From: Candidatus Eiseniibacteriota bacterium
GTDB lineage: Bacteria > Eisenbacteria > RBG-16-71-46
Assembly: GCA_031364845.1 (NCBI GenBank)
Contig: JANLWX010000172.1
Span: 1 to 21,054 of the forward strand
Length of the DNA stretch: 21,054 nucleotides
Direction of reading: 5' to 3'
The position numbers and the translations under genes are program-made. Below, one piece after another: positions 3,943 to 21,054 of this stretch (position 1 is the first letter of the stretch; each line of letters opens with the position of its first letter). The notes below the pieces were generated by a model. It ran no database searches, had not been told where the DNA came from, and worked only from the letters and a program-made list of their open reading frames with translations.

Positions 3943-3978
3943 AATCACTTCGAACCGGCCGCGGAATCGGAGATGTTC

Positions 3979-4329: not shown

Positions 4330-4498
4330 CGGACGTTTTTCCTCCCCGCGACGCCACGATTCTCGGGCCGGGCCGGTTTCTCCTGTTCACCTCGGCGCGG
4401 CGCACGGTAGACTTGCCCTGACTCTCGATACCTCGCCGCGCGCCCAAGACTTCTTCGGCCGAACCATTGGATTCTCGAACCGCGGAGCACATCGCACC

Positions 4499-7249
4499 AT
4501 GCGCCGTTTCGCCGTCCCCGCGGTTGTCCTGCTCGTGCTCACCGCGGGGATCGTCGCGATGCCGCGGCATCTCATCTCGCGCACGGCGACCAACCCCGAC
4601 TTCGTGCACTTCGAGAGCGGGCACGTGCACCCGGCGACGCTGACTCCGGACGGCACGCGGCTGCTGGTGGTCAACACGCCGGACAATCGTCTCAGCGTGT
4701 TCGATGTGACCGGTGCCGCGCCCGCGCGCGTGGCTGAGATTTCGGTCGGACTCGAGCCGGTGTCGGTGGCGTGCCTCGACGACTCGACGGCGTGGGTCGT
4801 AAATCATCTGTCGGACGACGTGAGCGTGGTCAACCTGCGCACGCTGCACGTCGCGGCCTCGCTGCGTGTCGGCGACGAGCCGGCCGATGTCGTGTTCGCG
4901 GGCGCGCCGGTGCGCGCGTACGTGAGCGTCTCGCAGGAGAACCGGATCCGCGTCTACGATCCGGCGAATCTCGCGACAGCGCCGGTCAACGTTCCGATCG
5001 CCGGCCGCATGCCGCGCTCACTCGCGCGTTCGGCGAATGGCGCGCTCGTCTACACGGCGGTGTTCAACGCCGGCAATCGCACGTCGCTCGTCAACTTCGG
5101 CGACATCCCGGCCGGCACGATGCCCGCCGATCCGCAATATCCGCGCTCACCCTCGCTGCCGGCGACGCCGCCGCGCGTGGCGCTCATCGTCCAGCGGCAG
5201 GGCGCGCAGTGGAAGGACATGTACGGCGGCGATTGGACCGCGAAGGTTCCGTACGACATCACCGATGTCGATGTCGCCGAGATCGCGACCGCGACGAACT
5301 CCGTGTCGCGCACGTTCGGCGATCTGGGTGCCGTGAACTTCGGGCTCGCCGTGAATCCGATCGACGGCCGCGTCGCAGTGAGCAGCACCGAGGCACTCAA
5401 CCTCAAGCGCTTCGAGCCGCGCCTGCGCGGCCACATCGTCGACACGCAGCTCGGTCTCGTCACCGCCGTGGGCACGGTGACGGTCCGCAATCTCAATCCG
5501 CACGCCGACTACAATGTGGCGAGCCGGCCGGCCGACGTGGATTCGGCGATCGGCATTCCGACGGGCGTGGCGTATTCCGGCGACGGCCTGCGCGTGTACG
5601 TCACTTCGCTCGCGAGCAACAAGCTCGCGGTGCTCGATCCCGCGGGGTCCGGCGTGCTCGCTCGCGTGCGCGTGGTCGAAGGCCCGACCGGCGTGGTCGC
5701 CGATGCCGCGCGCGGACGGCTCTATGTCGTGGGCCGGTTCCGCAACCAGCTCCAGACGCTGTCGGCGACGAACTTCAGCCAGGTGGCGCTGGCGGGCATC
5801 GGATTCGACCCGACGCCGGATGTGATCGTGAACGGCCGGCGCACGTTCTATGGAGGAAAGACGTCGGGTCACGGCGATCAGGCGTGCGCCACGTGCCATG
5901 TGTTCGGCGACTTCGACAACCTCGCGTGGGACCTCGGCGATCCCAACGGCACCTACGATCCGCCGCCGCCGGGTCAGCCGCTGGCACCATTCCTCGAAGG
6001 CTTCGATCCGATGAAGGGCCCGATGACCACGCAGTCGCTGCGCGGCCTGCCCGGCACCGGCATCCTGCACTGGCGCGGCGATCGCGCGAATCTCGCGGCG
6101 TTCAACCCGGCGTTCGTCGGCCTGATGGGCACCGCAGCACCGCTGCCCGACAGCTCGATGGCGGCGTTCACCGACTTCGTGACGCCGCTCGCGTATCCGC
6201 CGAACCCGCATCAGCACCTGGACCGCACGTTCGCCGACTCGCCGCCCGGGCAGCCGAGTGCGAAGCGCGGGCAGCAGTTCTTCATGAACACGCCGGTCGA
6301 CGGCGGGCGCACGTGCAACTTCTGTCACACCGTTCCGACCGGAAGCAACGGCCAGATCTTCCCCGACGACGTGCTGCTCGAGGACCAGGACATCAAGGTT
6401 CCCCAGTTGCGCAACATGTACAAGAAGACCGGATTCGCCGACGTGCCCGGCGCGATCAACACGCGCGGGTTCGGTTTCACGCACGACGGCGGCATCGACA
6501 GCCTGTTCGACTTCCTGCTCGCGCCCGTGTTCACGTTCGCGAGCGGAGCCGCGGGCAACAATCAACGCCGCGACGTCGAATCGTTCCTGCACGCCTTCGA
6601 CACCGGCATGGCTCCCGCGGTCGGATATCAGATCACGTTCGATGGCGTGAACAACGGCAACGCCACGTTACGGGCGCGCGTCGACACGCTGCGCACGCAG
6701 ACCGCTGCCAACGCCGACGTGATCGCCAAGGGCCGCGTCGACGGCCAGCCACGAGGATGGCTGTATGTCGGGCTCGATCAATGGCAGCCCGACAAGGCCG
6801 GCGACTCTCATCTGACCACGTCCGAGCTGATCGCACTCGCCGCGCTCGGCAGCGAGGTCACGATCTCCGGAGTTCCGTTCGGAAGCGGCAACCGCATGGG
6901 CATCGACCGGGATCGCGACACGTATCCCGACGGCGACGAACTCGACGCCGGCAGCGATCCCGGAAATCCAGCCTCGACTCCGCTCAACGTCGCCGTCGGC
7001 GAACCGCGCGATTCGGGCACGCGCGTGAGCGCGCTGCGGCCGAATCCGTTCCGCGATGCGACCGAGTTGTCGTTCACGCTCGGGAAGCCGGGGCCGGTGA
7101 GCGTCACGGTTTACGATGTGCTCGGACGCGAAGTGCGCAGCGTCGCGCGCGGGATGTGGCTCGATGCCGGACCGCAGTCGCTGCGCTGGGACGGGCGGAC
7201 GCGGGAGGGCGCTTCGGCCGCCGCGGTTGTCTACTTCGTGCGGCTCTAA
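4499..7249 (+). CDS. Secreted YVTN/YncE beta-propeller + di-heme cytochrome c (CcP/MauG-superfamily-like) + Ca-binding DxDxD motif + FlgD-Ig/T9SS-type C-terminal domain (cut short by TAA)
   Basis: Likely start is ATG 4499 (GGAG at 4484-4487; signal peptide MRRFAVPAVVLLVLTAGIVA). Propeller repeats include LTPDGTRLLVVNTPDNRLSVFD, WVVNHLSDDVSVV and YSGDGLRVYVTS. Two CxxCH motifs are present: CATCH at 5885-5899 and CNFCH at 6314-6328. Peroxidase-family-like motifs are TQSLRG..LHWRGDR and KVPQLRN...FTHDGG. DRDRDTYPDGDE lies at 6905-6940, and the CTD reads PNPFRD...VYDVLGREVR...WDGR...YFVRL. Confidence 0.85.
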   Translation: MRRFAVPAVVLLVLTAGIVAMPRHLISRTATNPDFVHFESGHVHPATLTPDGTRLLVVNTPDNRLSVFDVTGAAPARVAEISVGLEPVSVACLDDSTAWVVNHLSDDVSVVNLRTLHVAASLRVGDEPADVVFAGAPVRAYVSVSQENRIRVYDPANLATAPVNVPIAGRMPRSLARSANGALVYTAVFNAGNRTSLVNFGDIPAGTMPADPQYPRSPSLPATPPRVALIVQRQGAQWKDMYGGDWTAKVPYDITDVDVAEIATATNSVSRTFGDLGAVNFGLAVNPIDGRVAVSSTEALNLKRFEPRLRGHIVDTQLGLVTAVGTVTVRNLNPHADYNVASRPADVDSAIGIPTGVAYSGDGLRVYVTSLASNKLAVLDPAGSGVLARVRVVEGPTGVVADAARGRLYVVGRFRNQLQTLSATNFSQVALAGIGFDPTPDVIVNGRRTFYGGKTSGHGDQACATCHVFGDFDNLAWDLGDPNGTYDPPPPGQPLAPFLEGFDPMKGPMTTQSLRGLPGTGILHWRGDRANLAAFNPAFVGLMGTAAPLPDSSMAAFTDFVTPLAYPPNPHQHLDRTFADSPPGQPSAKRGQQFFMNTPVDGGRTCNFCHTVPTGSNGQIFPDDVLLEDQDIKVPQLRNMYKKTGFADVPGAINTRGFGFTHDGGIDSLFDFLLAPVFTFASGAAGNNQRRDVESFLHAFDTGMAPAVGYQITFDGVNNGNATLRARVDTLRTQTAANADVIAKGRVDGQPRGWLYVGLDQWQPDKAGDSHLTTSELIALAALGSEVTISGVPFGSGNRMGIDRDRDTYPDGDELDAGSDPGNPASTPLNVAVGEPRDSGTRVSALRPNPFRDATELSFTLGKPGPVSVTVYDVLGREVRSVARGMWLDAGPQSLRWDGRTREGASAAAVVYFVRL

Positions 7250-7345: not shown

Positions 7346-10300
7346 TCATCGACTCAGAACGATCTTCCGCGTCAGAGTGCCCTGAGTCGTGGTCAGCTGC
7401 GCGAAGTAGATCCCGGCCGAAGCGCGACCGCCGGACTGCACGTCGCCCGACCACATGACGTCGTATCGTCCCGCCGGCTTCGTTCCGGAATCCAGCTTCG
7501 TGACGAGCCGGCCTGAGAGGTCGAACAGTGCCAGCTGAACCGATCCGGCAATCGCCAGCGCGTAGCGGAACCGAACGTGATCCGCGGAAGGCGTGGGACC
7601 AGCGGTGAACGTCAAGCGAGACGGCTTCGATTCCTCGGCACTCACCGTCGTGGGATCGTAGGGTCCGAGCGCCCACACGCTGTTCCCGGATCCCGCACCC
7701 ATGAGGATCATCGATGTCGACCCCGGATCATAGTGCGACGTCCGATAGCGCGTGGGAGTGGGACCGTGGGGCGAGCGCGCGAGCCAGTTCCGCGGCGACT
7801 GGAACGAGTACTCCCAGATGTCGTCCGTGACATCATTCTCGAACTCTCCTGTCGCGAGCACCATGCGATCCTGCGATGGTACGTAGACGCCGGTATGCGC
7901 CCAGATCGAGTCCGAGTCCACCAGATGGAACCAGCGCGTCGGCGGCGTCAGCGTCAGACCCCAGAAGTCACCCAGCGGCCCGGTGTCGCCGTAGCCGCCG
8001 TATACCAACATGCGCTTGCGGTGAGAATCGTAGACCGCCGTGTGGCTGTCGCGCGCCGGAGGCGTCGGGCCGCCGGGAGTGACCTGCGTCCACGCGGGCA
8101 CTCCGTTCAGCGACAACGACCACAGATCGCCGAGCTCTCCGGACGTGGTTGCCGCGGCGTTGTAGCCACCGAAGACGAGCATCGCTCCCGCGGCGGGGTC
8201 GACCAGGGCGGTATGCAGCCCACGAGCGAACGGGGGGCCACCCGTCGGCAAAACCTGTGACCATGCGGGGGGGCCGCCGCGAGAGAGCGCCCAGACATCG
8301 TTGTGTAACCCGCTTGCGGAAGCGCCACCGAACGCGATCATTCGATCGTTGGGCTCGTCGTAGACCAGTGTCGCGACATCTCGGGCTGGCGGAGGCGTAC
8401 CCCCGGGGTTCAACTGGGTCCAGGCTGAATCGACCAGCGAATACACCCACACATCGTTCAAAGGGCCGTTCATCCCGGTACCGCCCCACTGGATGATGCT
8501 TGATCTCGACGTCTCGTAGCCGGTTGCGGAAAACACTCGCGCGGGAGGAATGGCTTCGGTCGGCGCAACCGGGCTCCACGCCTTCGGACCAGTCAATGCG
8601 AGCGCCCAGGTCTCGTTGGTGCTGATGCTCGACCCCAACCCGCCCGCCATCACCAGCCGGTTGCGAATCGGATCGCGCACGGCGAAACCACTGCCGCGGC
8701 GTTCCGGCGCTCCCGTGGTGGTGACTGCGGTCCAGTTGGGCGTCCCCGTCAGGTTCAGGGCCCACGTGTCGTTCGTCGTGGTCCTCGGCGAGTTGACGAT
8801 GATGCCGGTGGTGAGCACGACCTGGTTCGGCAGCGAGTCGAACACCGCCACGGCGCCTCCACGAGCGGCCGGAGACGCCGCGGTCGTGATCTGGCTCCAG
8901 AAGCCGGAGTTGATCCGCACCGACACCGAGCCTGCGGGCACGGTCGCATTGGCAGTCACCACGTCCGGCCGTCCGTCGGGATAGAGATCACCGACGGCGA
9001 CGAAGGAGGGCGCGGTTCCCATGAGGAAGTCGGCCTTCGCGAAGAACCCGCCGATCCCGTTCGCAACGAGGAACGACAGCGTACTGGCCGTGTTGTTCGC
9101 GACCATCACGTCCGGGCGATTGTCGAGGTTCACATCGGCGATGGCGAGTGCGATTGGACTCGTGCCCGTGGCGTAGGACACGGAAGACCCGAGCCCTCCC
9201 GCACCATTGCCGAGTCGAACGGACATCGAGTTCGAGCCGCTGTTCGTATAGAGAACGTCGCGCTTTCCATCTGCATTGACATCGGCGATTCCGATCGCAT
9301 AGGGGGTGGATCCCGCCGCGTAGTCCGTCCTGGCCAGGAAGCTTCCCGTTCCCGTTCCCAGGAGAACGGAAATGGTATTCGCCGAGGAGTTCGCGACCGT
9401 AAGGTCGAGAACGTTGTCTCCGTTGAGATCGCCGAGAGCGACCTGACGCGGGGCAGTGCCCGTCGCGAAGGTGCCATTGGGGGCGAAGCCTCCCGTTCCA
9501 TCTCCCAGCAGGACGGTGACACTATTGCCGCCGAAGTTCGAGACGATGATATCGAGATTGCCGTCGGAGTTCAGGTCGCCGACCACCATCGACTTGGGAT
9601 TCGTTCCCACCGCAAAGGTGGCCGGAGCTGCGAAACTTCCGGTTCCATTCCCCAGGAAAACGAACACGTTGTTGCCCGTGGAATTCAGGACTACGAGATC
9701 CAGGTGGCTGTCGGCGTCGAGGCGCGCCAATGCCACCCAGCGCGGGAATCCTCCGCCGGGCAGGTCGACACGCTGGACGAAGGCGCCCCGTGCGCCGCCG
9801 GTGAGGACGGACACCGTGTTGGAGTCGAAGTTCGCCGTCACGGCATCCTGGACCCCGTCCTCGTTGAGATCGCCCAGTGCGACGCTAATCGCGCCACCGC
9901 CGGCCGTGTAGTCGCGCTGGAAACGCACCCCGAAGGTGTAGCCTGCGAACGAGTATTGGTACGTGTCGTTGCGCAGCACTCCGGAGCTGTCGGTTCCGCC
10001 GAACAGGATTAGGCGATCGGCACGGGAGTCGTAGACGACGGCGGAACGTTCGCGACCGAGCGTCAGGGCTCCCGCGGGAGTAAGTCGCGTCCAGGTAGGG
10101 GTCGCGCCGAGCGAGAGCGTCCACATGTTCACGCCGGTTTGCGATAGGTTGAGGACGGGATCGCGGTCATGCGTGCTCCAAGAGCTGAAGACCACGCGGT
10201 CCCGAATTGGGTCGTAGAACGCCCTAGGATTGCCGTCCAGCTGCAGCGACGTCGGACCCCACTGCCCCGGCATGTAGGGACTGTTGCCCTGGGGCAACAG

Positions 10301-10930
10301 GAGCGACCACGTAGGCGTTCCGCTCAGCGACAGCTCCCACACGTCCCAGAATGACGAGCTTCCGCGATCGGGATCGATCTTGCCGCCGAAGAGCAGCGCG
10401 CGGTCGCGCACCGGGTCGTAGATCAGAGCACCATCGTACTGCGCGATCGGTCCCAGCTGGCCGTTGGTGAGGTTCACCCACTCGCCGTTGCCCGATAGCG
10501 GCAACGCCCAGACGTCGGAACCAAAGGCGCGGGTGTAGAGCAACAATCGATCGCGCGCCGAGTCGTAGCACATGACGCCAAGGCTCGACGTCGGACAAAC
10601 GATCGGCGATAGCTGCTGCCAGGCTGCGGAATCGGCGTCCGCCCGATTTGGTTTCGAAGCCAGCGCCTCGAAGCCGCGGTGTTCGCCCTTGCGCGCCGCA
10701 CTAGCGGCCGCGCGGATCGAGCGCAGCAGCTCGCCCGCGTCTTCTTCGGTGAGCGCGCTGGGCGAAGGCGGAAGGCGGTCGATCTGAACGGGCGCAGCGG
10801 CCTCGACGACCGGAGTGGGCGCGACCGGCATCGTGCCGGCTGTGGCACACCAGGCGCTGACGGCCACGGCGGCGGAAACGAGAGCAGAGAAGCAGTGCTG
10901 AATGGGACGGGAAGGCGAGAGAGTGTGCAT
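7346..10930 (-). CDS. Secreted Kelch-repeat protein (about 12 blades) with an inserted 7-repeat FG-GAP/VCBS propeller and an FlgD-Ig/T9SS-type C-terminal domain (1194 aa)
   Basis: GAGGAG lies 8 nt before ATG 10930, and the N-terminus is hydrophobic. Kelch repeats have the form YD..R.R..LFGG...DVW.L.L.G.P.W. There are seven D(L/V)NxDGxxD-type FG-GAP repeats (about 8903-9940). The CTD is GPTPS...LFDLSGRLVTKL...WSG...AGIYFAQL...TRKIVLSR*. Confidence 0.9.
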   Translation of the reverse strand: MHTLSPSRPIQHCFSALVSAAVAVSAWCATAGTMPVAPTPVVEAAAPVQIDRLPPSPSALTEEDAGELLRSIRAAASAARKGEHRGFEALASKPNRADADSAAWQQLSPIVCPTSSLGVMCYDSARDRLLLYTRAFGSDVWALPLSGNGEWVNLTNGQLGPIAQYDGALIYDPVRDRALLFGGKIDPDRGSSSFWDVWELSLSGTPTWSLLLPQGNSPYMPGQWGPTSLQLDGNPRAFYDPIRDRVVFSSWSTHDRDPVLNLSQTGVNMWTLSLGATPTWTRLTPAGALTLGRERSAVVYDSRADRLILFGGTDSSGVLRNDTYQYSFAGYTFGVRFQRDYTAGGGAISVALGDLNEDGVQDAVTANFDSNTVSVLTGGARGAFVQRVDLPGGGFPRWVALARLDADSHLDLVVLNSTGNNVFVFLGNGTGSFAAPATFAVGTNPKSMVVGDLNSDGNLDIIVSNFGGNSVTVLLGDGTGGFAPNGTFATGTAPRQVALGDLNGDNVLDLTVANSSANTISVLLGTGTGSFLARTDYAAGSTPYAIGIADVNADGKRDVLYTNSGSNSMSVRLGNGAGGLGSSVSYATGTSPIALAIADVNLDNRPDVMVANNTASTLSFLVANGIGGFFAKADFLMGTAPSFVAVGDLYPDGRPDVVTANATVPAGSVSVRINSGFWSQITTAASPAARGGAVAVFDSLPNQVVLTTGIIVNSPRTTTNDTWALNLTGTPNWTAVTTTGAPERRGSGFAVRDPIRNRLVMAGGLGSSISTNETWALALTGPKAWSPVAPTEAIPPARVFSATGYETSRSSIIQWGGTGMNGPLNDVWVYSLVDSAWTQLNPGGTPPPARDVATLVYDEPNDRMIAFGGASASGLHNDVWALSRGGPPAWSQVLPTGGPPFARGLHTALVDPAAGAMLVFGGYNAAATTSGELGDLWSLSLNGVPAWTQVTPGGPTPPARDSHTAVYDSHRKRMLVYGGYGDTGPLGDFWGLTLTPPTRWFHLVDSDSIWAHTGVYVPSQDRMVLATGEFENDVTDDIWEYSFQSPRNWLARSPHGPTPTRYRTSHYDPGSTSMILMGAGSGNSVWALGPYDPTTVSAEESKPSRLTFTAGPTPSADHVRFRYALAIAGSVQLALFDLSGRLVTKLDSGTKPAGRYDVMWSGDVQSGGRASAGIYFAQLTTTQGTLTRKIVLSR

Positions 10931-10984
10931 CGCGGCGACTCCTCAAGGGCGGACCAAGGAGATGAGGCATGAATTGCAGGCAAA

Positions 10985-10993
10985 ACCATAGCA
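10985..10993 (-). promoter_or_regulatory. Possible extended -10 promoter element (TGcTATGGT) for the Kelch/FG-GAP gene
   Basis: It matches TGnTAnnnT on the minus strand about 55 nt upstream of ATG 10930, in the 205-bp intergenic gap. No convincing -35 is seen. Confidence 0.3.
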
Positions 10994-11135
10994 TTTCGTC
11001 GCGCCCGCAGGTGCCCCAAATTAATGCGTAACCCGGAGCGCTACGAGCCGGGTGCGTCGGCGTCTCCGGTGCGACGCGCGCGAACGCGGTGGGGGGCGAG
11101 GGGCGAGCCTCCGAGTATGGGAGCACGGGATTCCG

Positions 11136-14099
11136 TCATCGCTTGGCTGCTGCCGTGGCGCTCAGGCCGCCGCCGTTGCCAACCAGGACGAAGGCGCCCC
11201 AGTAGAACGGCGCGTCGCGCATCGCTCCCTTCATCACAGACCGCCGGGCGCGAGCCACCGCCTCGGATCGGCTCGCCCCACGCGACAGCAGCTCTCGATA
11301 GAACGTCTCCATGAAGTACGCCGTGACGAGATCATTGACAGGCCAAAGGCTGACCAGCACCGACTGGGCCCCTGCGCTCAGGAATCCGCGAGCGAGACTG
11401 ACCACGCCTTCCCCACGCGCAATCTGCCCCACGCCGGACTCGCATGCCGCCAAGGTGACCTGATCGGCGCACAACTGCAGGGACAAAATGTCCTTCATCG
11501 TCAATGCTGAGGGCTCTCCCGGCCCGAGCGAGTCTGGCGCGAGCCACAAAGCCGAGCGTTCGGGCTCATATTCGCTGCTCCAGGCGTGAGTGCCCAGGTG
11601 GATGATCTGAGCCCGCTGAAGTTCCGGCAGCGCGAGTAGCCGCTCCCGGCTGGCGTTCGCACCCGAGAGCTCCACAATCGTGCGTGGTGAAGCGACCGTT
11701 CGAAGGACCGCAGCCTCTCGGGCCGTACCCGGCAGAGGTCGCAGGCGTGACGAGTCGGGACCACTGGACCGTACCTCGACCTCCCCGCCTACCATTACGG
11801 TATTGTCGAAGAGAGGGTCGGTCACGGCAACGATGACCGGCTGGCATTCGTTGTTCGAGTCGACCTCAAGGAAGGATGCTGCGGGCAGGTAACGAAACGC
11901 GAAGCGTTCGCCGCACCATGAGGCGTTACGCCCCCCTATTCGCAGGATCTCGAATGGAAGCAGAGACAGCGCGTCATCGGGTACGACGATCAGCTTGCCC
12001 ACTCCGGCCAGCAAACGAGCCGCAGGTGCAAGGAGCACTTCGTACATCCGTTCCGCCTGGGCCGCCAGCGCTCGGGATGAACCCACGTCGGCTGAGAGCC
12101 GCAGCCTCATCGTTCGAACGAGCGCTCGCAAACGGTTGCGGCCCGGAAGGACGTGAACGGCCCAACGGTCCCGACGCAGCACCCAAAGCGTCGATGACGA
12201 ATCTCCGACGCTGTACTCCAGCAGAGCCTCATCGGGAGCGATGCGGGATTGCACATCGGCCATTCGGATGGTCACGTGGCGTTCGGGCCGGATTCGGTCC
12301 AACAGCGTCCGCGCGTGCGACCGTTCCGCCCAGTGGAACGCCTCCTCTGCCTTATCGCGATCTGATGGAGACAGCCGGACCAGCAGGTCGATGATCGCTT
12401 CGTACTCATCGGCGCGTGTGCCCATGAAGCGAATCGCCGCGTCCGCAGTCCCTTGGTGCGAGCGTAGGGAGTCCACGAGCTGGACGCCGGCTCGTGCATG
12501 CGCCAGCGCCCCGGCGGGATCGCCCTGAATGCGAGCCAGGTGCGACAGGTTCATGTGCGCGTACGAGGCGAGATCCACGGCCCCGGCGTCTTCCGCAGTG
12601 CCGAGAATCTCGGTGAGCGCTCGTCCGGCCGCTTCGTAATCGCCTTGGCCGATCTGCGCCACGCACAGATTCAGTCGCTGCTCGAGGGCCTCGAACTCCC
12701 GGGCCCGCGCGGCACCGATCGCGCGGCGAAAGCAGCTCGCGGCCACCGACGCGTTACCTAGAAGCAGATGAGTCACTCCCAAGTCGGATACTACTTCGCG
12801 AACCACGGAGGAGTCGCCGCTCGCGATCGCCGCGCGCAGAGCGGCTTCGGATTTGGCACGCGCGCCAGTGAGGTCGCCGGTGACGCGCAGGGCCATCGAG
12901 AGGTTGTTTAGGGCCCGTGCCTCGAGGTCCGGAGCTTGGTTGCCTTCGGCATAGTCCAGAACCTCAGTCAGAGCGGTCTTGGTTTTGGGCAGGTCTCCGA
13001 GCGAGGCCCAACAAAACCCGAGGTTGAGGAGAGCCGCCGCGCGCGAGTGAACCTCGCCGAGCTCCTCGAAGCCCTGGACCGCTCGTTCGAGCACCTCGAT
13101 AGCTTCGGAATAGCGGCCGGCTCGGGCGAGCAACTCGCCGAGCTGGCTACCCCATGGCGGCCGCAGCGGATCCTCTTCTCTCATCGACGCGCCCGCGCGA
13201 TCCAGGAGCGATTCGGCCTTCCTGAAGCGAAGGCGATCCTGCTCGAGCCTGGCGTGATCCATGAGAACCACGCGCGTGCGCAACGAGTCTCCGCCTTCCA
13301 CGGTCGCCGAGAGCGCGCGCTCGAATAGCGCCTGCGCCGAGTCCATTTCGCCTTCTGCATGTTTCACCCGTCCGAGGACGTCCAGTGTGGATCCGAGCTG
13401 CGCCAGTTGCCCGGTTCGTTCGCGAATGGCACGGGATTCGGACAGGAACTCCCACGCGCGAGCATGCTCGCCGCGCCTGAAGGAATTGAGCCCGAGATCG
13501 TACAGTGAGTTGCCGAGCATCCGTTCGTCGCCAAGTTCGCGCCGAGCGTCGACGGAGCGACGCAGCAAACGATCAGCGCGCTCGTAGTCTCCTCGCTGCA
13601 CTGCGGCGGCGCCCATGCCGCCCAGCACCCAGGCATGCCGTCGGGAGTCGCCCAGCTGCTCGTAGAGCGACAACGCAAGCTCGAACAAACTGTCCCCGTA
13701 CGCCGGGGCGCTCCGTGTTGCTCGGGCGAGCGACTCCGCCTCGGCTGCCGCAATTCGTTTGCGCTGTGCGGCCTCATTCCACTTACGCCGAAGCTGCCAC
13801 GCGGTGGTCGAGATTCGCGTGCTCCGCACCGAGGGCTCGAGCCGAGCGACGCACTCCGCAACAGCGCGCACCGACCGCCGATCCGGACTGCGTGCGAGGC
13901 TCGCGCGGATCTCGTCCACCAGCACGCGGTTCCACCGGTCCTCGAACGCCGAGTCCTTGAGGATCTCCTCAGCCGCCACGCGACTTTCCGTCGTAGAAGT
14001 CTCTCCACGGGCGGGAGGCGCCGCGGCCAGGACCACGCACGTAGCGATGGCGAGTGATCTCTTGAAACATGGCAATCGATATTCCTTCAATGGCACCAT
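11136..14099 (-). CDS. TPR-repeat + CHAT (caspase HetF-associated, clan CD) protease with an N-terminal signal peptide
   Basis: About 10 TPR-like helical repeats (e.g. LGNSLYDLGLNSFRRGEHARA, AAALLNLGFCWASLGD, ARALNNLSMAL). It has AF.WAERSHARTLLD, LLEYSVG, LIVVPDDALSLLPFE, LPGTAREA, IIHLGTHA (His codon 11586-11588), VTLAACESG (Cys codon 11442-11444), GA.SVLVSLWPVND and PFYWGAFVLVG. An alternative start is TTG at 14075, with AAGGA 7 nt upstream. Confidence 0.92.
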   Translation of the reverse strand: MVPLKEYRLPCFKRSLAIATCVVLAAAPPARGETSTTESRVAAEEILKDSAFEDRWNRVLVDEIRASLARSPDRRSVRAVAECVARLEPSVRSTRISTTAWQLRRKWNEAAQRKRIAAAEAESLARATRSAPAYGDSLFELALSLYEQLGDSRRHAWVLGGMGAAAVQRGDYERADRLLRRSVDARRELGDERMLGNSLYDLGLNSFRRGEHARAWEFLSESRAIRERTGQLAQLGSTLDVLGRVKHAEGEMDSAQALFERALSATVEGGDSLRTRVVLMDHARLEQDRLRFRKAESLLDRAGASMREEDPLRPPWGSQLGELLARAGRYSEAIEVLERAVQGFEELGEVHSRAAALLNLGFCWASLGDLPKTKTALTEVLDYAEGNQAPDLEARALNNLSMALRVTGDLTGARAKSEAALRAAIASGDSSVVREVVSDLGVTHLLLGNASVAASCFRRAIGAARAREFEALEQRLNLCVAQIGQGDYEAAGRALTEILGTAEDAGAVDLASYAHMNLSHLARIQGDPAGALAHARAGVQLVDSLRSHQGTADAAIRFMGTRADEYEAIIDLLVRLSPSDRDKAEEAFHWAERSHARTLLDRIRPERHVTIRMADVQSRIAPDEALLEYSVGDSSSTLWVLRRDRWAVHVLPGRNRLRALVRTMRLRLSADVGSSRALAAQAERMYEVLLAPAARLLAGVGKLIVVPDDALSLLPFEILRIGGRNASWCGERFAFRYLPAASFLEVDSNNECQPVIVAVTDPLFDNTVMVGGEVEVRSSGPDSSRLRPLPGTAREAAVLRTVASPRTIVELSGANASRERLLALPELQRAQIIHLGTHAWSSEYEPERSALWLAPDSLGPGEPSALTMKDILSLQLCADQVTLAACESGVGQIARGEGVVSLARGFLSAGAQSVLVSLWPVNDLVTAYFMETFYRELLSRGASRSEAVARARRSVMKGAMRDAPFYWGAFVLVGNGGGLSATAAAKR

Positions 14100-14184
14100 G
14101 TCGTCATGTTAACCTTCAGCCCCTCTATAACCCTCCAGATTTTCATGTTTACGTGGCAAGTCGCCGCGGCCGCCGGAGATTGAC
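14100..14184. promoter_or_regulatory. Short AT-enriched divergent promoter region between the CHAT gene and the small-protein/metalloprotease operon
   Basis: 85-bp head-to-head intergenic region. It has a TATAAC -10-like hexamer at 14126-14131 (+) and a GGAG RBS at 14175-14178 before ATG 14185. No clear -35. Confidence 0.45.
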
Positions 14185-14772
14185 ATGCACCCACGACGCC
14201 CCTCGATCGAGCGGTGGATTCTCGTCGCCCTGTCCGTCCCGTTCGCCTTTTCTTCCGCTTTCGCCACCACACTCCGCCCGGTCGACCTGCGTCAAATCAT
14301 CGCGATGTCGAGCGACGTCGTGGTGGGTAGAGTCGAGGAAGTGCACAGCCGCTGGACCTCCGACCGAGCGCTCATCATGACGGAGGTAACGGTTGCGGTG
14401 ATCGAGCGAATGAAGGGATCCGGGAGGGTGCGGACCGTCGTCCGCACCATCGGAGGAGAGGTTGACGGCGTTCGCATGACTGTCGACGGTGCGCCGATTT
14501 TCCACCGTGGCGACGAGGCCGTGCTCTTCCTACGTCGGAATGCCGACGGCAGCACCGTGGTGAGCGGGCTATCGCAGGGCAAGTTCGACGTTCGATTTGA
14601 CCCAGCGACCGGCCTGCGCTACGTGCAGCGCCCGGCGGACCTTCGCTTCCAGGACGCGCGTACGTTGAAGGGCGCGCAGACCCCACTCGCGGCTCGCGGA
14701 GTTCTCCTTTCGGAGTTCCTGACTACCGTTGGCGACATGGTCGAGGCCGAAGCTCGCGGGATTCAGCGATGA
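14185..14772 (+). CDS. Secreted hypothetical protein (195 aa) resembling the N-terminal accessory domain often found on bacterial matrixin-family proteases
   Basis: It has an RBS and the signal peptide ...WILVALSVPFAFSSAFA|TTL. The sequence pattern is TTL...L.....S.VVVGRV......W...I.TEVTV.V.E..KG...VRT.GGEVDG....V.GAP.F..GDE.VLFL...GLSQGKF. Its TGA overlaps the next ATG (ATGA at 14769-14772). Confidence 0.75.
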   Translation: MHPRRPSIERWILVALSVPFAFSSAFATTLRPVDLRQIIAMSSDVVVGRVEEVHSRWTSDRALIMTEVTVAVIERMKGSGRVRTVVRTIGGEVDGVRMTVDGAPIFHRGDEAVLFLRRNADGSTVVSGLSQGKFDVRFDPATGLRYVQRPADLRFQDARTLKGAQTPLAARGVLLSEFLTTVGDMVEAEARGIQR

Positions 14773-17700
14773 TGAGGCTGAGGGCGACCACATGTCTCGC
14801 TGTCGCGTGGCTCGTCTTCACCTGCGGCGCGCGGCCTGCAATCGCGCTCACCACCCAGACGGTGAACGCTACGCTTGTCGTAGCCGGGGCGGATTGGACC
14901 TTGCCCGATGAGGCCCAGGGTGCCCCCGGACCCGACTGCAACAGCAACAACTACGCCGTCAACAATGTTCTCACCAGCACGGGATATCTAGAGGCCCGGA
15001 CGTGGCCGGTGACCATGCCTGCCGGTGAGGAGGTCTATCAGATCTACGTCGACGTCAATGGGCGCTACGACCAGGGAACCAACAACAACCGTTTCTGGAT
15101 GCGCGTTCGCAACACGGTGACCCCCGAGGCGGTCAAGAACAACTTCGCCACTTGGAATCAAACCAACGTCGACTGCGATTGGCGCGCAGGGGGCCCAGGA
15201 GGCGCTGGTTGGAAGGTCGACTCGCTGCGGACCAGTTGGACGTTGAGCGACGTGCAAAACCTATGGGTGGCGGCGCGCCGCATCAACAACGGCGACAACG
15301 TCGGGCTTCCACAAGCACGCATCAACGCCTTCCGCCTCACGCTCGTCACCCGCAAGATCGCTCCGGCCACTCCGATCAATCTCTCGGGAAACCCTACGTC
15401 TTCGTCGATTAGCCTGTCCTGGGCGCCGGGCGGAGGCGGCGGACCGCTTGAGCACTATCGCATCCAACGATGGAGCGGCGGCGTTCTCCAGTTCGAGACC
15501 AACCTGACCTCGACTTCCTACAACGACCCCAGTCTTCCATCCAACACCACGTACGAGTATCGGGTTTACGGGGGCAACTCGGATCGTCTCTCGACGTCTT
15601 ACGTCTCGACCGTGGTGCGAACGCTGAAGGTCGCGCCCGCGACGCCCCAGACGCTGGCCGTCACGAACGTCACGACGAGCACGATCGCTTTGAGCTGGGC
15701 GGCTGGCGGCGGAGGCGGGCCGGTCGAGGATTTTCTGATCGAGCGACAGATCGACGGCGGCGGATTCACAGGTCTCGTCGTCGTCGGTCCGGGAACGTTC
15801 ACTCACACCGACAACGGCTTGGCGAGTGCCTCGCCCATTTCGTACCGTGTCATCGCACGCAACTCCGACCAGTCATCCGGAACTTCGAACCCGGTTTCGG
15901 CCAAGCTCGTCCCCGCGACACCCGTCAATCTGGCGACAGGCGCCATCACCACCAGCAGCATCGCATTGACCTGGGCACCTGGCGCCGGCGGCGGGCCGGT
16001 CGAGAACTACCAACTCGAGCGCCGAATTCCTCCCGCCGCGTTCCAACCGCTCGTCACACTCGGCAGTGCGCCGACGACACACACCGATACGGGACTGAAC
16101 GAGTACGTCCAGTACGAGTACCGGGTGCGTGCCACCAACTCCGAGCGTACCTCCGCCTTCTCATCCCCGGCCTCCGCACGCACGCTCAATACGCCGGCTC
16201 GCCTGGCCATCCCCACGACGATGGTCACGACGATTGCGGGGCAAGTGCTCCAGCCTGCGATCCGCGTGCTGATCCAGGATGCTCAAGGCAATCCTGTGGC
16301 GAACGCTACGAACCTCGTCACTATGGTGATCCTGAGCGGCCCGGGCGGCCCGCCTCTGTCGGGAACGTTCAGCCGCACGGCCTCCGGCGGAGAAGCCATA
16401 TTTAGTGACCTCAGCCTCACCAGGTCGGGGAATTACGTGCTCCAGGCCACGAGTCCCGACCTCGAGGCCGCCCAAACCAACTCCTTCCGCATCGACCCGG
16501 CGGCGGCGGCGAAGCTCGCCTTCACTTTCCAACCCGGCGACGCCGGGGTTTCCGCACCCATCTCGCCGGCCGTCGAGGTCGCGGTTCAAGACGCCTACGA
16601 CAATGTGGCGCCGGCGGCCGAGTTGTCGGAACCGAACATCACGCTCGAGATCCTCAGCAATCCCGCGGGCGCGATCCTCTCCGGCAACTTGTCGCGCCAG
16701 GCGGAACAAGGCCTGGCGAGCTTCGACGACGTCGCGATCGACCGGCTGGTGACGGGCTATCAGCTGAAGGCGCGAAGCAACGGACTCGCCGCGGCGTCGA
16801 GCCTGCCGTTCAACGTGGTTCCTTACGTTACGCGCCACGGCGACCACTTGGTCGCGTTCTACGAATTCGACGACGCGGATTCCATCTGCCAGACGCGCGG
16901 CTGGCAGGGCGCCGATCGGTCCCGCCAAGTTTTCGCCTCCGTCTCGCCGCGCTTCGTCGTCCATGGCGGGCCCATGGAGATGGGCACGCGTGCGCTGTGG
17001 TTCGGCATGGATTCCACGTCTGCAGAGACGCGGAGCTGGGTGAACCAGCCGGGTTACGGCAACCACTGGAGCCAGCGGCTCACCTCCCCAGCGTTCTCGC
17101 TCGCGGGGCGCTCCGATCCCGTCCTCAGGTTCATCGCGACGGTCGACTTCGCGGCCTCGGGATCCTTGATCGGCGCCGCGTCCGGAAACGAGTTCCTGGC
17201 CGTCCAGGGCCTGCGAGCGGATGGGACGTGGGCGTTCCTCGACGCGCGCTACACACCGCTCGCAGGTTCGCCATTCATCGCGCGGCCGATCGCGGGTCGC
17301 GGCGAGATCCAGGCCGAAGTGCACCTGCTCCAGGACGGCAATGAGACGGTGCCGTGGTCGGGCACGCCGCGCGTGCGCATCGTGGTCCAGACCGATTCGT
17401 CCGGGTCCCACGAGGACGGCGGCGTCCCTCCCGGCCGCGGAGCGGCGCAGATCGATCAGCTCCGGATGGACGACGGCGCGACTCCGATGCTCACGCTCGT
17501 CGACTTCGACGGCGGAACCACCGGCGCATGGACGCTTTCGGCTCAGAACGGGCTGACGCGCGGTCCGGGATCCAACGCGAGCTTCACGCGTGACGTTGCC
17601 GCCACCCCCACGCAGGCTCAGCTGAAACGCAGCAGCGTCCTCGATCCATCGATACCGCTCACGTGCTTCTGGACGTTCCTCACCAGCGTCGAGACGTCGG

Positions 17701-20700
17701 CCGACGGCGCCTACGCGCGGCTCACGTCGCCGTGGCTCGCGCTGCCGGCCGGGACGGACTCGCTCGTTCTCGGCCTCTCGGGACGACTGCCGACGGCGGA
17801 GCAACTGCGCGCGGTGAAGGTTCTGGTCCGGGGCAAGCGGGCCGGCGATGCAAGGCCGCGCTTCACGGCGCTCCGTCGCGGCGAGCTGGTGCGGCCGTTC
17901 GGCGGCGACGATCGCCACACCGCGTTCGGGCGCGTGGCCGAGATGTTCTACCCGCAGGACTTTACCGGCACCGCGCCCTGCGACTCGGTGCAGCTCGTGG
18001 TCGAGTTCCACGACCGCGCCGAGGCGGTCCCGGGTGGTTTCGCGACGCGTCCCTCGACCCGGCTGCCGTTCCTGGATCGCATCTACTTGAGCGCGGTCGG
18101 GATGGACGACGACGACGACGGCGTCGCGAATCCCGACGATGCATGTCCCGCGGTCTCGGCGGTCGGCACGGACCTCGACGCGAACGGCTGCCCGTCCGCG
18201 ACCGCGACGTTCAACGCGACCGCGATGTGGATCGATTTGGACCGCCCGATCCACTATGTCCTCGCGGACTCCGACCGGCCGGGCACGTACCACGACAGCC
18301 GGCTCGAGTCGGTGCGGAAGGCCTTCGCGAGTTGGGCCACCGTGCCCGGCACCGGCGTCTCGTTCCAGGACGATGGAGTCGTGAGCACGCGGCGTGCGCG
18401 CTGGAACGATGGCGTCAACCTGGTGACGTTCGAGGATGCGCTGCTCGATTCGACCGGCAGTTCGTTCTGGGACGAGACGATGCTCGGGCTCACGATACGG
18501 ACCGCTTTCGAGCGCCGCTCCTCCTACCGCGATCGAGTGGTGCTTCCCGCCCAGATCGTCGACGCCGACATTCTGTTCAACCCGCAGCTCACGTTCTCGA
18601 CTCCGGCCACGGGGCCGGTGCCGGACGCCGTGGACCTCGAGAGCGTCGCCGCGCACGAGATCGGGCACCTGCTCGGGCTCAAGCACAGCCCGCTCAAGGC
18701 ATCGACGATGTACTTCCAGATCGCCGAGGCCCAGGACGCCGGCGCGACGCTCGAGGAAGAGGATCGCTCGGCACTGTGCGCGCAGCTGCCCGGCGCCGGT
18801 CTTTCGAGCTTCGGCTCCATCCGTGGCACGGTGAAGCTCGGGGCGGATCTCAGTCCGGTCGTGGGCGCCGCGGTGCTCGCGATCCGGATCGACGGCACAC
18901 CGGACACCGTCGCCGTCGATTACACAGCAGCGAACGGGACCTACTCCCTCGTGCGCCTGGCGCCCGGCACCTACAAGGTGCGCGTCGAGCCGTTCTCGGC
19001 GTTCGGCCCCGCCTGCGATCCGGCCCGGATCTCACCCGAGCTCGCCGCAATCTCGGGCGATGACACCTGGGTGCCCGAGTTCTGGACGACGACCGAGAAC
19101 GGAGGCGATCCTCCCGCCGCGTTCGATCCCATCGCGATCACAGCTGGCGAGAACCACCCTGGCGTCGACATGACCACCAACGTCGACGCGACGCCGCCCA
19201 CAGTCGGCTTCATCAGTCCGATGGCGAATCAGCAAGTGCCCACGGACGCGGCGATCGTCATCCAGTTCAGCGAGCCCGTCGACGCCCGCACCATTCCGGC
19301 CGCGCTGCGGGTCCTGACCGACGGCGACACCACGCGCCTCAAGGGCCGGGGCGAGCTGCGCAACGGCGGCACCACGCTGGTGTTCGTGACACGCGACCCC
19401 ATGGCCGCGAATCGGCTCCATCACATCGTGGTGGGCACCGCGCTCGCGGACGCCAACGGCATCCATCTGGGGACGCCGGCGACGATCGACTTCACGACCG
19501 CGCCCCGCGCCACGCCCCTGATCGACGCTGTGATCCCCGTGCGCGCGATGCGCAGCGGAGTCCTGACGCTGCTCGGGAGCGGGATGGATCCGGCGGCGCC
19601 GGCCCAGAACTCCGTGGTGTTCTCGTGTTCGGGGTGTCCTGATCGTATCGTGCAGCCGGACGTGATCGACAGCCGGTGGCTGAACGTCACCGTGCCCGCG
19701 GACGCGGCGACCGGGACCGTGCGCCTGGTCGTCGCGGGGGTGTCTAGCAACTCCGTGCCCGTGACGATCGCGACCGCTGCGCAGATCGCAGGACCGCGGC
19801 TGCAGGGAGCGGCGGTTTCGGTGGACTTCGTACCGAACGACCTCGCGTTCTCGGCGAATCAGCGGCTGCTGTTCGTCGCCGGCTCGACCGGCGTGGTCGC
19901 CATCGATCGGATGTTCGGGAACGCGCTGCGTGGCGCGCACACGAACCTCGGCGTTCTGCGGAACCTCGCGGCCGGACCCGATACGGCCCGGGTGTGGGCG
20001 ACGCAGCCGGACGCCGGCCGTCTGCTCGAGCTCGACGCCACGATGAGCGCCTTGCTCGAAACCGCCACCGCGATCGACGTGGGAGGCCGGCCTGGCGGTC
20101 TGGCGCTCTCCCCGACCGGGCGCCAGGCATTCGTCGTCGACGTCGACGGCAACCGATTGATCGAGGTGGACGTGGATCGGACGCGCGCGAGCCACGGCAG
20201 CGTGCTGCGCACGATCACCTTCCCCGACACCACGCTCGACGGCGGGATCGCCGTCCACCCGCGCGGGCGGTACGTCTTCCTGTCGTCCCCGTCGGTCGGA
20301 GTGTTCGCGGTTGATCTCGACACCGACGACCGCATCGGTTTGTCAGGCGTCGAGCTGTCCCGCGCGCAGCCGCATGCGCTCGCGTGCGGACCCGACGGAA
20401 CCACGCTGCTGGTCGGCGACGGCGGCGGCGTGCACCTGCTGTCCGCATCCGCGCCGACCGGGACTTGGACGGAACGCACGACGGTCTCCAGCACCACGGC
20501 GGGAGTCGCGCTCACGAGCGACGGACTCTCGGCGCTGGCCGCGATGCCGGGCGAGAATCGCCTTCGGTCGTTCGCCATCGCCCAGGGCCAGACGTCCCAG
20601 GTCGGAGCGACGTCAGGCGCCGGACCGGGCGCCCTCGCCGTGGATCGAACCGATGGATTCGCGGCGCTCGCACAGCAAGCCGATCGCACCGTGCAGCTCT

Positions 20701-21054
20701 ACGCGCTGCAGCCGGCGCTCTCGATCACGGGCGTCGTTCCACCCGTGGTGCTTCCGGGCGAGCACGCGACGCTGTTCTCCAGCGCGCTCACCGCGGGAAG
20801 CTCGATCGTGATCGGCAGCCAGTCGATCACGCCGATCGCGACCGCGACCGAGGCGGCGTCGTTTGCGGCGAGCACGGTGTGGGAGGCGGCGCGCACCACG
20901 ATCGGCGTCTCGGCGCCGAACGCCGCGCCGACGCTCTCGCTTCCGCTCGTCATCGTGCCGTCGGTCGAGCCTCAGAACGTCCGGCCCACGGGGCTCGCCC
21001 TGGCCGCCCCGCTCGATACCTGCGCCGGCAACGGCGCGATCGGCGCCGGCGCGC
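14769..21054 (+). CDS. Giant secreted multidomain matrixin (M10-like metzincin) metalloprotease/adhesin, >2095 aa, 3'-truncated by the window edge; not in the supplied ORF track
   Basis: I translated frame +3 from ATG 14769 to the window end without finding a stop. Domains in order: signal peptide MMRLRATTCLAVAWLVFTCGARPAIA; unknown N-domain; 3 FN3 (about 15357-16190); 2 Ig-like repeats (about 16191-16820); PGYGNHWSQRL beta-sandwich region (about 16830-18100); DDDDDGVANPDDACP..DANGCP (18105-18194). These are followed by the metzincin motif HEIGHLLGLKH (18654-18686) with Met-turn STMY (Met 18708-18710); carboxypeptidase-regulatory-like domain; Big_5-like Ig; IPT/TIG; YVTN-like propeller (about 19790-20710); and a second IPT/TIG. 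Confidence 0.92.
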   Translation, partial: MMRLRATTCLAVAWLVFTCGARPAIALTTQTVNATLVVAGADWTLPDEAQGAPGPDCNSNNYAVNNVLTSTGYLEARTWPVTMPAGEEVYQIYVDVNGRYDQGTNNNRFWMRVRNTVTPEAVKNNFATWNQTNVDCDWRAGGPGGAGWKVDSLRTSWTLSDVQNLWVAARRINNGDNVGLPQARINAFRLTLVTRKIAPATPINLSGNPTSSSISLSWAPGGGGGPLEHYRIQRWSGGVLQFETNLTSTSYNDPSLPSNTTYEYRVYGGNSDRLSTSYVSTVVRTLKVAPATPQTLAVTNVTTSTIALSWAAGGGGGPVEDFLIERQIDGGGFTGLVVVGPGTFTHTDNGLASASPISYRVIARNSDQSSGTSNPVSAKLVPATPVNLATGAITTSSIALTWAPGAGGGPVENYQLERRIPPAAFQPLVTLGSAPTTHTDTGLNEYVQYEYRVRATNSERTSAFSSPASARTLNTPARLAIPTTMVTTIAGQVLQPAIRVLIQDAQGNPVANATNLVTMVILSGPGGPPLSGTFSRTASGGEAIFSDLSLTRSGNYVLQATSPDLEAAQTNSFRIDPAAAAKLAFTFQPGDAGVSAPISPAVEVAVQDAYDNVAPAAELSEPNITLEILSNPAGAILSGNLSRQAEQGLASFDDVAIDRLVTGYQLKARSNGLAAASSLPFNVVPYVTRHGDHLVAFYEFDDADSICQTRGWQGADRSRQVFASVSPRFVVHGGPMEMGTRALWFGMDSTSAETRSWVNQPGYGNHWSQRLTSPAFSLAGRSDPVLRFIATVDFAASGSLIGAASGNEFLAVQGLRADGTWAFLDARYTPLAGSPFIARPIAGRGEIQAEVHLLQDGNETVPWSGTPRVRIVVQTDSSGSHEDGGVPPGRGAAQIDQLRMDDGATPMLTLVDFDGGTTGAWTLSAQNGLTRGPGSNASFTRDVAATPTQAQLKRSSVLDPSIPLTCFWTFLTSVETSADGAYARLTSPWLALPAGTDSLVLGLSGRLPTAEQLRAVKVLVRGKRAGDARPRFTALRRGELVRPFGGDDRHTAFGRVAEMFYPQDFTGTAPCDSVQLVVEFHDRAEAVPGGFATRPSTRLPFLDRIYLSAVGMDDDDDGVANPDDACPAVSAVGTDLDANGCPSATATFNATAMWIDLDRPIHYVLADSDRPGTYHDSRLESVRKAFASWATVPGTGVSFQDDGVVSTRRARWNDGVNLVTFEDALLDSTGSSFWDETMLGLTIRTAFERRSSYRDRVVLPAQIVDADILFNPQLTFSTPATGPVPDAVDLESVAAHEIGHLLGLKHSPLKASTMYFQIAEAQDAGATLEEEDRSALCAQLPGAGLSSFGSIRGTVKLGADLSPVVGAAVLAIRIDGTPDTVAVDYTAANGTYSLVRLAPGTYKVRVEPFSAFGPACDPARISPELAAISGDDTWVPEFWTTTENGGDPPAAFDPIAITAGENHPGVDMTTNVDATPPTVGFISPMANQQVPTDAAIVIQFSEPVDARTIPAALRVLTDGDTTRLKGRGELRNGGTTLVFVTRDPMAANRLHHIVVGTALADANGIHLGTPATIDFTTAPRATPLIDAVIPVRAMRSGVLTLLGSGMDPAAPAQNSVVFSCSGCPDRIVQPDVIDSRWLNVTVPADAATGTVRLVVAGVSSNSVPVTIATAAQIAGPRLQGAAVSVDFVPNDLAFSANQRLLFVAGSTGVVAIDRMFGNALRGAHTNLGVLRNLAAGPDTARVWATQPDAGRLLELDATMSALLETATAIDVGGRPGGLALSPTGRQAFVVDVDGNRLIEVDVDRTRASHGSVLRTITFPDTTLDGGIAVHPRGRYVFLSSPSVGVFAVDLDTDDRIGLSGVELSRAQPHALACGPDGTTLLVGDGGGVHLLSASAPTGTWTERTTVSSTTAGVALTSDGLSALAAMPGENRLRSFAIAQGQTSQVGATSGAGPGALAVDRTDGFAALAQQADRTVQLYALQPALSITGVVPPVVLPGEHATLFSSALTAGSSIVIGSQSITPIATATEAASFAASTVWEAARTTIGVSAPNAAPTLSLPLVIVPSVEPQNVRPTGLALAAPLDTCAGNGAIGAGA
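15357..16190 (+). repeat. Three tandem fibronectin type III domains within the giant ORF
   Basis: Repeats start IAPATPINL (15357), VAPATPQTL (15630) and LVPATPVNL (15906). Each has SI.L(S/T)WA.G.GGGP.E and ends Y.YRV...NS(D/E), or a close variant. Confidence 0.85.

Follow-up and report, generated by a model that had tools for sequence, protein, structure and literature searches.

CHAT proteases are known almost wholly as cytoplasmic defence switches, and the lone periplasmic example has no proven substrate. Here we analyse a stretch of 21,054 nucleotides, hereafter the window, which is the entire contig C94 (JANLWX010000172.1) of a 4.6-Mb Candidatus Eiseniibacteriota genome and encodes an exported tetratricopeptide-repeat (TPR) CHAT protease beside a small exported protein with a predicted TIMP-like fold and a giant matrixin (C numbers denote contigs, G numbers genomes, L numbers stored loci and P numbers protein records). 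A comparable set of parts occurs in the SAVED-CHAT/PCaspase/PCi/PCk/PCc-sigma system of Haliangium ochraceum type III-B CRISPR (10.1101/2023.06.23.546230; this and the other papers are cited from the portions of their text that were available), which groups the genes for a ligand-gated CHAT protein, another protease and its small inhibitor, a Ser/Thr kinase and a sigma factor, and in which SAVED-CHAT was shown to cleave and activate PCaspase. That system is cytoplasmic, activated by cA3 via SAVED and tied to CRISPR/CBASS, with a caspase as second protease, whereas the locus described here has export signals, a TPR-array sensor, a metzincin with a type IX secretion system (T9SS) tail and a putative inhibitor of TIMP fold. 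DdvA-DdvS of Myxococcus xanthus (PMC11506125) resembles the locus in its periplasmic TPR-CHAT protein with a His-Cys dyad, its zinc-binding transmembrane anti-sigma factor and its extracytoplasmic function (ECF) sigma factor, and corrects a preliminary description of the window, which held that characterised TPR-CHAT proteins are cytoplasmic. In DdvA the TPR-CHAT part is fused to the anti-sigma factor and self-cutting has been proposed, whereas the CHAT protein studied here is separate, the anti-sigma factor is a separate gene at some loci, and the constant companion is a matrixin with a TIMP-fold partner. Csx29-Csx30-CASP-sigma of type III-E CRISPR (PMC10028731) also contains a TPR-CHAT protein that cuts an anti-sigma factor, Csx29 being cytoplasmic and RNA-guided. 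ECF54 contexts (supplement of PMC7826278) bring together an ECF sigma factor, a TPR-CHAT protein and a second protease, as here; they are actinobacterial, the protease is a subtilase, and a TIMP-fold partner goes unmentioned in the available text.

The small protein and the matrixin have precedents of their own. The N-domain of animal TIMPs (3cki_B, 3ma2_C, 1br9), which coordinate zinc via their N-terminal amino group (PMC9890683), has in common with the small protein a predicted five-stranded OB/NTR fold and the register of residue 1, and the small protein is encoded next to an M10-type metzincin; it differs in its 10-13% identity, in mostly having no cysteines, in an extra hairpin and C-terminal helix, and in having no TIMP C-domain. 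In the potempin A/karilysin and KLIKK-potempin pairs of Tannerella forsythia (PMC9890683), a small OB-fold inhibitor gene likewise lies directly upstream of a secreted protease resembling matrix metalloproteinases (MMPs). Potempins, however, are lipoproteins that inhibit via loops, whereas the small protein carries a plain A-x-A site, resembles TIMP and NTR structures and comes with a CHAT protein and a relay; potempins were not near it among the structural matches listed. Listeria Mtz-Tim (PMC8235301) also sets a bacterial metzincin beside a predicted TIMP-like protein; Tim, a phage-derived lipoprotein, is a target of cleavage by Mtz, comes without a CHAT protein and is likened to the small protein by description only. 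A literature search, with most subscription papers outside its reach, found no paper joining an exported CHAT protein to a TIMP-fold/matrixin pair; the combination of TPR-CHAT with a periplasmic metalloprotease returned DdvA only, and nothing was returned on TIMP with prokaryotic NTR domains, DUF928 with CHAT, or Eisenbacteria with type IX secretion. Each part has a precedent in DdvA, potempins, Listeria Tim or ECF54, and the combination is apparently undescribed.

The TPR-CHAT gene (of a clade that we call A), the small gene and the giant matrixin gene form a real, conserved and apparently undescribed module. We searched 206 genomes of the phylum with the TPR part of the CHAT protein, the small family and the matrixin core, and 89 genomes of one family (f1) additionally with a CHAT-domain profile, placing borderline matches by tree distance; small-protein matches weaker than E 1e-47 were assigned to other subfamilies, and three truncated CHAT pieces that could not be aligned at the dyad were left out, of which the C-terminal piece from G137 was later recovered. 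Within f1, both the small-gene/matrixin pair and a clade-A CHAT were present in 21 genomes, the CHAT only in four, the pair only in none and neither in 64 (Fisher test, 1e-16; shuffling within genera, 3e-10), p values that overstate the association because related genomes are not independent. The module is patchy inside f1 genera (4/16, 2/18, 4/8 and 1/8), and of the 17 genomes with a control paralogue, the exported CHAT-B, six also have the pair (p 0.22). Eleven of the 22 linked CHAT copies adjoin a module gene, and the layouts are divergent, as in the window, in G137 and G161, tandem in both copies of G002, and convergent in G001, G124, G152, G162, G147 and G163. G002 carries two copies each of the CHAT, small and matrixin genes. 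Outside f1, the CHAT gene lies beside the matrixin or the small gene in all five genomes that have this matrixin, and G101 and G103 contain a co-directional five-gene cluster of adaptor, CHAT, small gene, matrixin and kinase. We also compared CHAT and matrixin identities across 17 f1 loci (rho 0.54) and set this mirror test aside, shared descent being uncontrolled.

The preliminary description had proposed a four-gene cassette that also included a Kelch/FG-GAP gene, and had named a lack of co-location elsewhere as the finding that would speak against it. Homologues of the CHAT, small and matrixin genes are co-located and co-distributed in other genomes, so that this objection fails, and these three genes do belong together; the Kelch/FG-GAP gene does not. 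A chance cluster of secreted-protein genes is a good description of that fourth gene: only four of the 101 stored loci show Kelch or FG-GAP matches, one of these lying inside a matrixin and being counted twice, the source genome holds 25 Kelch-like, 15 FG-GAP-like and 139 FlgD-tailed open reading frames (ORFs) among 3298 called, and the nearest FG-GAP relatives do not track the module (3 of 13 module-bearing, p 1.0). For the other three genes, chance is refuted by 21/21 co-occurrence, repeated adjacency in different orientations and full clusters in a second family, and as an account of the layout we regard it as very improbable. The Kelch gene lies on the same strand as the CHAT gene, 205 base pairs (bp) away, and may share its transcript. 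Separately, FG-GAP repeats are found in the variable N-terminal part of the G010 matrixin.

The CHAT protein of the window has a CHAT domain (PF12770, E 3.5e-60) preceded by a TPR array (TPR_12, six stretches), and the dyad His and Cys are invariant in 18 of 18 aligned clade-A CHAT domains. In a quick IQ-TREE tree of 46 rows, calculated without bootstrap, clade A has an SH-like approximate likelihood ratio (SH-aLRT) of 100, and the matrixin-linked CHATs of f1 and non-f1 groups are split from other CHATs by a branch with support 89. The protein is not a Csx29, scoring 19 bits against NCBIfam NF041237 (cut-off 300), and does not have the fused anti-sigma part of DdvA, since its N-terminus is a short hydrophobic signal-like stretch and no zf-HC2 match is found in it; a PDB sequence search with it returned TPR proteins only. 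Its third-position GC content, looked at for horizontal acquisition, ranks at the genome's 10th percentile. The dyad is retained in 22 of 22 linked CHAT copies, and two of the four orphan clade-A CHATs, which occur in genomes without the matrixin, have lost the His (G007 and G013). The protein would act as a protease, presumably gated by a ligand of the TPR array. As side observations, the source genome encodes five further TPR-CHAT proteins with hydrophobic N-termini and intact dyads (on C47, C75, C78, C153 and C204), and ECF sigma and anti-sigma genes of its own accompany the one on C47.

The 195-aa small protein matches no Pfam family, including PF00965 (TIMP), and a PDB sequence search with its profile returned nothing below E 0.2, while its family comprises 20,792 clusters at 50% identity (E 0.001). 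Its AlphaFold2 model, from 143 sequences, reaches a predicted local distance difference test score (pLDDT) of 91.4, and we assigned the fold by Foldseek and by VIA-align re-scoring of the Foldseek top 1000. The best seven Foldseek matches are NtA, NTR and TIMP-2; VIA-align places the predicted model on N-TIMP-3 (3cki_B) with Z 12.1, root-mean-square deviation 2.4 and 117 aligned residues, model residues 1-164 spanning chain residues 1-121, such that mature residue 1 is predicted to be in register with TIMP residue 1. The closest named Atlas clusters, queried with a homologue of the window protein, are again TIMP/NtA/NTR. Across the family (n=143), residue +1 is T in 111, S in 18 and A in 8 members and residue +2 is T in 62, Q in 30 and S in 14, and Ala stands at -1 in 122 of 142, as expected of an A-x-A signal-peptidase site at the predicted point of cleavage. 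The window protein has no Cys, and with T, S or A at +1 the family shows no potempin-type lipoprotein anchor. A gene with HExxHxxGxxH is adjacent at 19 of 21 small-gene loci, the remaining two stopping at contig edges; in the window the small-gene stop overlaps the matrixin start (ATGA), and all six longer, fused homologues of the small protein contain PF00413.

The TIMP fold, the N-terminal register, the adjacency or fusion to matrixins and the absence of a cysteine switch from these matrixins (below) together suggest that the small protein is probably a detachable inhibitor of its cognate matrixin, a function that is not proven by the fold alone. Several points count against it. Agrin NtA equals N-TIMP-3 as best structural match (Z 12.1), complement C345C domains reach Z 8-10 and the PCOLCE NTR domain scores like or nearly like TIMPs, the fold being found in non-inhibitors too; 103 of 143 family members are cysteine-free and so cannot form the Cys1 and Cys3 disulfides of TIMPs; Listeria Tim is cleaved by its metzincin, with inhibition not demonstrated (PMC8235301, available text); and one fused form (P0030) is missing the small protein's N-terminal segment. 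The structural matches, the cleavage of Tim and P0030 would all fit a small protein that instead chaperones the folding of the matrixin, serves as its substrate or targets it as a subunit. We consider such a role unlikely, as it leaves unexplained the exact register and the conserved residue +1 behind the signal-peptidase site, and as two further single-chain forms (P0027 and P0031) keep a signal-like segment before the domain, fitting a need for a free N-terminus. In these two records the signal-like segment and the TIMP-fold domain come after a matrixin whose tail looks like a membrane anchor; signal peptidase may split them as polyproteins, or the genes may have been joined in error. The fold also occurs in other settings: in family f11, 27 of 41 genomes carry a separate TIMP-fold subfamily without this matrixin or CHAT clade, and a locus from Bradymonadia (L021 3080-11433) encodes an anti-sigma factor, an ECF sigma factor, a CHAT-AAA-TPR protein, a TIMP-fold protein and a short matrixin, that is, a different CHAT architecture beside the same TIMP-fold/matrixin pair.

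Pfam detects fn3, Peptidase_M10 (PF00413, E 7.4e-11, 42.6 bits, cut-off 24), CarboxypepD_reg, Big_5 and propeller matches in the giant matrixin, which is laid out as three FN3 domains, a jelly-roll/MAM-like region, an Asp-rich motif, the M10 domain, a carboxypeptidase-regulatory domain, Big_5 and a propeller. All 25 aligned catalytic domains share an invariant HExxHxxGxxH and Met-turn. The model of the pre-catalytic region (pLDDT 65.5) has as its best match an immune-inhibitor-A peptidase structure, a weak one with a TM-score of about 0.25, and sub-threshold matches to the InhA-like MAM Pfam family are seen in homologues of the region. The cysteine-switch motif of MMP prodomains is PRCGxPD. 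It is absent from all six giant matrixins scanned, which may have another latency device. The gene runs off the end of the window, and its continuation, which the preliminary description had pointed to downstream, was located without a direct bridge: the end of contig C176 matches the C-terminal third of homologous matrixins, and the part in the window aligns to residues 46-2017 of a full-length homologue of 3296 aa, that on C176 to residues 2026-3295. The 9-residue gap to the homologue, the single copy of each half and the depths of 10 and 11 make it very likely that the rest of the matrixin lies on C176; we treat the join as inferred because no overlap and no bridging contig were found between C94 and C176. 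The C176 part ends in FlgD_ig/Por_Secre_tail, a tail also present on complete homologues, and SprA, PorV and PorU score above their cut-offs in the source genome; the giant matrixin is therefore probably a T9SS cargo. The CHAT and small proteins have no T9SS tail and would, on this reading of their sequences, remain in the periplasm.

Based on these observations, we propose that the small protein blocks the matrixin and that the CHAT protease cuts either the inhibitor or the matrixin to switch the matrixin on, a reading to which we give a probability of about 0.42. Sec would carry all three proteins into the periplasm, from where the matrixin alone would continue to the surface via T9SS. The free N-terminal Thr/Ser of the small protein would coordinate the catalytic zinc in the manner of TIMP Cys1 and stand in for a cysteine-switch prodomain, and the inhibitor-bound matrixin would cross the periplasm in this state. 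The TPR array would keep the CHAT protease off until a cue binds, whereupon it would cleave on the matrixin side; a membrane relay (an adaptor and a kinase, or in the source genome an ECF sigma factor and a zinc anti-sigma factor) would report the event or control expression, and the variable N-terminal arrays of the matrixin would select the outside target. This proposal accounts for the constant TIMP-like/matrixin partner and for the decay of orphan CHATs, and it mirrors the way SAVED-CHAT cuts PCaspase next to an inhibitor, a kinase and a sigma factor, as far as that system is described in the available text (10.1101/2023.06.23.546230).

The relay genes, signalling partners outside the window that the preliminary description had missed, point to a possible reversal of this order. 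A 330-aa secreted beta/immunoglobulin (Ig)/TPR adaptor resembling DUF928 and MtxA clusters and a 570-aa Ser/Thr kinase-transmembrane-TPR protein also recur; the adaptor on C114 resembles the DUF928/MtxA-like beta-Ig-TPR secreted proteins found beside a membrane receptor in the MtxA system (PMC4439547), where the receptor is a CHASE2 adenylate cyclase rather than a kinase-transmembrane-TPR protein. Immediately after the matrixin C-terminal part on C176 stands a 191-aa ECF-sigma-like gene, which has no Pfam match alone and matches SigE as a four-sequence profile (E 4e-7), followed by a 357-aa gene with zf-HC2 (E 3.8e-8) and a hydrophobic segment, so that an ECF sigma/anti-sigma pair likely follows the window matrixin across the contig break. 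In the reverse order, the surface matrixin would sense, a fragment that it produces or sheds would bind the TPR array, and the CHAT protein would act as a site-1 protease on the membrane relay (anti-sigma factor, adaptor or kinase ectodomain), signalling to the cell interior. Such an order would fit the near-constant presence of a relay, the adaptor being found in 19 of 21 module genomes (and in 12 other genomes, where it is often beside CHAT-B) and one of the two others having sigma/anti-sigma genes adjoining the CHAT gene. The same sigma/anti-sigma family lies beside three loci whose CHATs form one subclade (the window, G124 and G002:C29), and a TPR-CHAT gene is near 6 of 10 other sampled loci of this sigma family. 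The adaptor-kinase pair also lies beside CHAT-B in G006, G029, G032 and G127, and hence a single relay may work for more than one CHAT, the secreted partner differing from CHAT to CHAT. The reversed order has described parallels in the cleavage of the anti-sigma Csx30 by Csx29 (PMC10028731) and in the proposed self-cleavage of DdvA (PMC11506125), both as given in the available text, and it would also explain the joint loss of CHAT activity and matrixin. However, the relay type varies by locus (kinase or sigma/anti-sigma) while the TIMP-like/matrixin partner is constant, and in G013, which has no matrixin, a clade-A CHAT directly next to an adaptor and a kinase no longer has the catalytic His. 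We see the reversed order as a real but doubtful possibility, the relay as substrate agreeing with the observations nearly as well as the matrixin side.

A further alternative would dispense with mutual cutting, the genes being merely co-regulated and the CHAT protein serving as a periplasmic maturation or quality-control factor, or as a scaffold, for a T9SS cargo of 3400 residues. Several of the five other source-genome CHAT genes, all inspected, do adjoin FlgD-tailed cargo genes, neighbours that prove little because such genes are common (139 of 3298 ORFs). At most loci seen, CHAT-B is convergent with a secreted partner of its own, about 250 aa long, whose N-terminus is conserved; this partner has no Pfam family (and hence no Pfam protease domain, a point in favour of this alternative) and is sometimes extended to a T9SS tail. 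The strict pairing of one clade with one partner, the kept dyad and the recurring kinase/sigma relay suggest regulated cutting instead, and we rate the maturation role as improbable, below a non-inhibitor role of the small protein. Across these loci, the general plan seems to join an exported CHAT protein to a secreted partner specific to its clade and to a membrane relay that can be swapped.

The proposed switching of the matrixin by the CHAT protease also has points against it. Ten of the 22 linked CHAT copies lie on other contigs amid unrelated genes, and one contig is too short to tell; a second matrixin copy in G147 (C231) has no small gene directly upstream. Of the orphan CHATs that keep the dyad, that of G023 is intact (genome 84% complete) and that of G014 has degenerate flanks (99% complete), and the two dead orphans are tree sisters, so that they may stem from one event and lend weak support. 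The window CHAT itself sits on a long branch and has Ala after the catalytic His, where the usual residue is Gly. Co-loss is silent on which protein is the substrate, the membrane relay being an equally near candidate, and a T9SS-exported matrixin would meet the CHAT protease in transit only.

The four genes of the window are arranged around an 85-bp gap as the preliminary description had stated, and both protease motifs are intact. Its four signal peptides are consistent with a hydrophobic stretch in all four N-termini (best 11-mer hydropathy 2.25-2.68, a hydropathy check only). A sigma-70-type promoter scan of the gap gave 0 sites against 0.9 expected.

Table 1. Positions of the module genes and associated features, in the window unless a locus is named.
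Feature	Position	Strand	Remarks
Kelch/FG-GAP/Kelch protein, FlgD_ig (T9SS-type) tail	7346..10930	-	1194 aa; Pfam
TPR-CHAT caspase-like protease, clade A	11136..14099	-	987 aa; Pfam, signal-peptide-like N-terminus, no T9SS tail, predicted periplasmic
CHAT dyad	His838 = 11586-11588; Cys886 = 11442-11444	-	alignment
Divergent intergenic region, 85 bp	14100..14184	.	between CHAT and small gene
TIMP/NTR-fold small exported protein (predicted), likely matrixin inhibitor	14185..14772	+	195 aa
Predicted mature chain start of small protein	14266	+	directly behind A-x-A site
Giant matrixin, N-terminal 2095 aa	14769->21054	+	open at 3' end; whole protein about 3370 aa
Matrixin pre-catalytic beta-sandwich (jelly-roll/MAM-like) region	16821..18098	+	conserved among giant matrixins
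Matrixin catalytic domain	18198..18800	+	HExxHxxGxxH at 18654-18686, then Met-turn
ECF-sigma-like gene and zf-HC2/transmembrane anti-sigma gene	L063 7451-9003, C176	-	directly downstream of matrixin C-terminal part
DUF928/MtxA-like adaptor and kinase-transmembrane-TPR pair of source genome	L062 7022-9960, C114	-	single copy, unlinked from window
Orphan clade-A CHATs, His lost (two) or motif degenerate (one)	L079 8792-11845, L086 11965-14106, L112 about 7678-10460		
CHAT-B partner gene	L096 12487-13275	-	
CHAT-B partner gene	L087 5106-7790	+	
CHAT-B partner gene	L082 18108-18863	-	

One Logan contig, which may derive from the source sample, covers 8554-21054 without differences. At window positions 7227 and 7247 the window has T where the contigs of both runs have G, likely assembly errors; G at 7247 erases the stop of the gene at 4193-7249 (+), so that its ORF extends to about 7290 and completes a FlgD-type tail. 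This gene, convergent with the Kelch gene, encodes a YncE-like propeller, a di-haem cytochrome c peroxidase-like part and the FlgD tail, and is accompanied at 2986-4329 (+) by a nitroreductase-like gene and then a heavy-metal-associated domain protein gene.

Put together, the parts would make an envelope cascade in which an exported caspase-like protease removes a TIMP-fold inhibitor and sets free a giant surface enzyme resembling MMPs, and in which kinase or sigma outputs can be exchanged, a picture that we put forward only tentatively. If it is true, the cascade would be assembled from parts that animals use in tissue remodelling and cell death, and would exemplify a wider rule that gives every exported TPR-CHAT clade a secreted partner of its own. 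The module offers a short list of candidate substrates for an exported CHAT protease together with a natural knock-out pattern, and its parts are soluble domains that could be expressed and assayed without culturing the organism. The TIMP-fold family could provide small, disulfide-free metalloprotease inhibitors. As a large unannotated family found beside prodomain-less matrixins, it bears on the origin of TIMP-MMP regulation, and, if the cascade holds, its roughly 20,000 clusters would represent the prokaryotic root of TIMP-MMP control.

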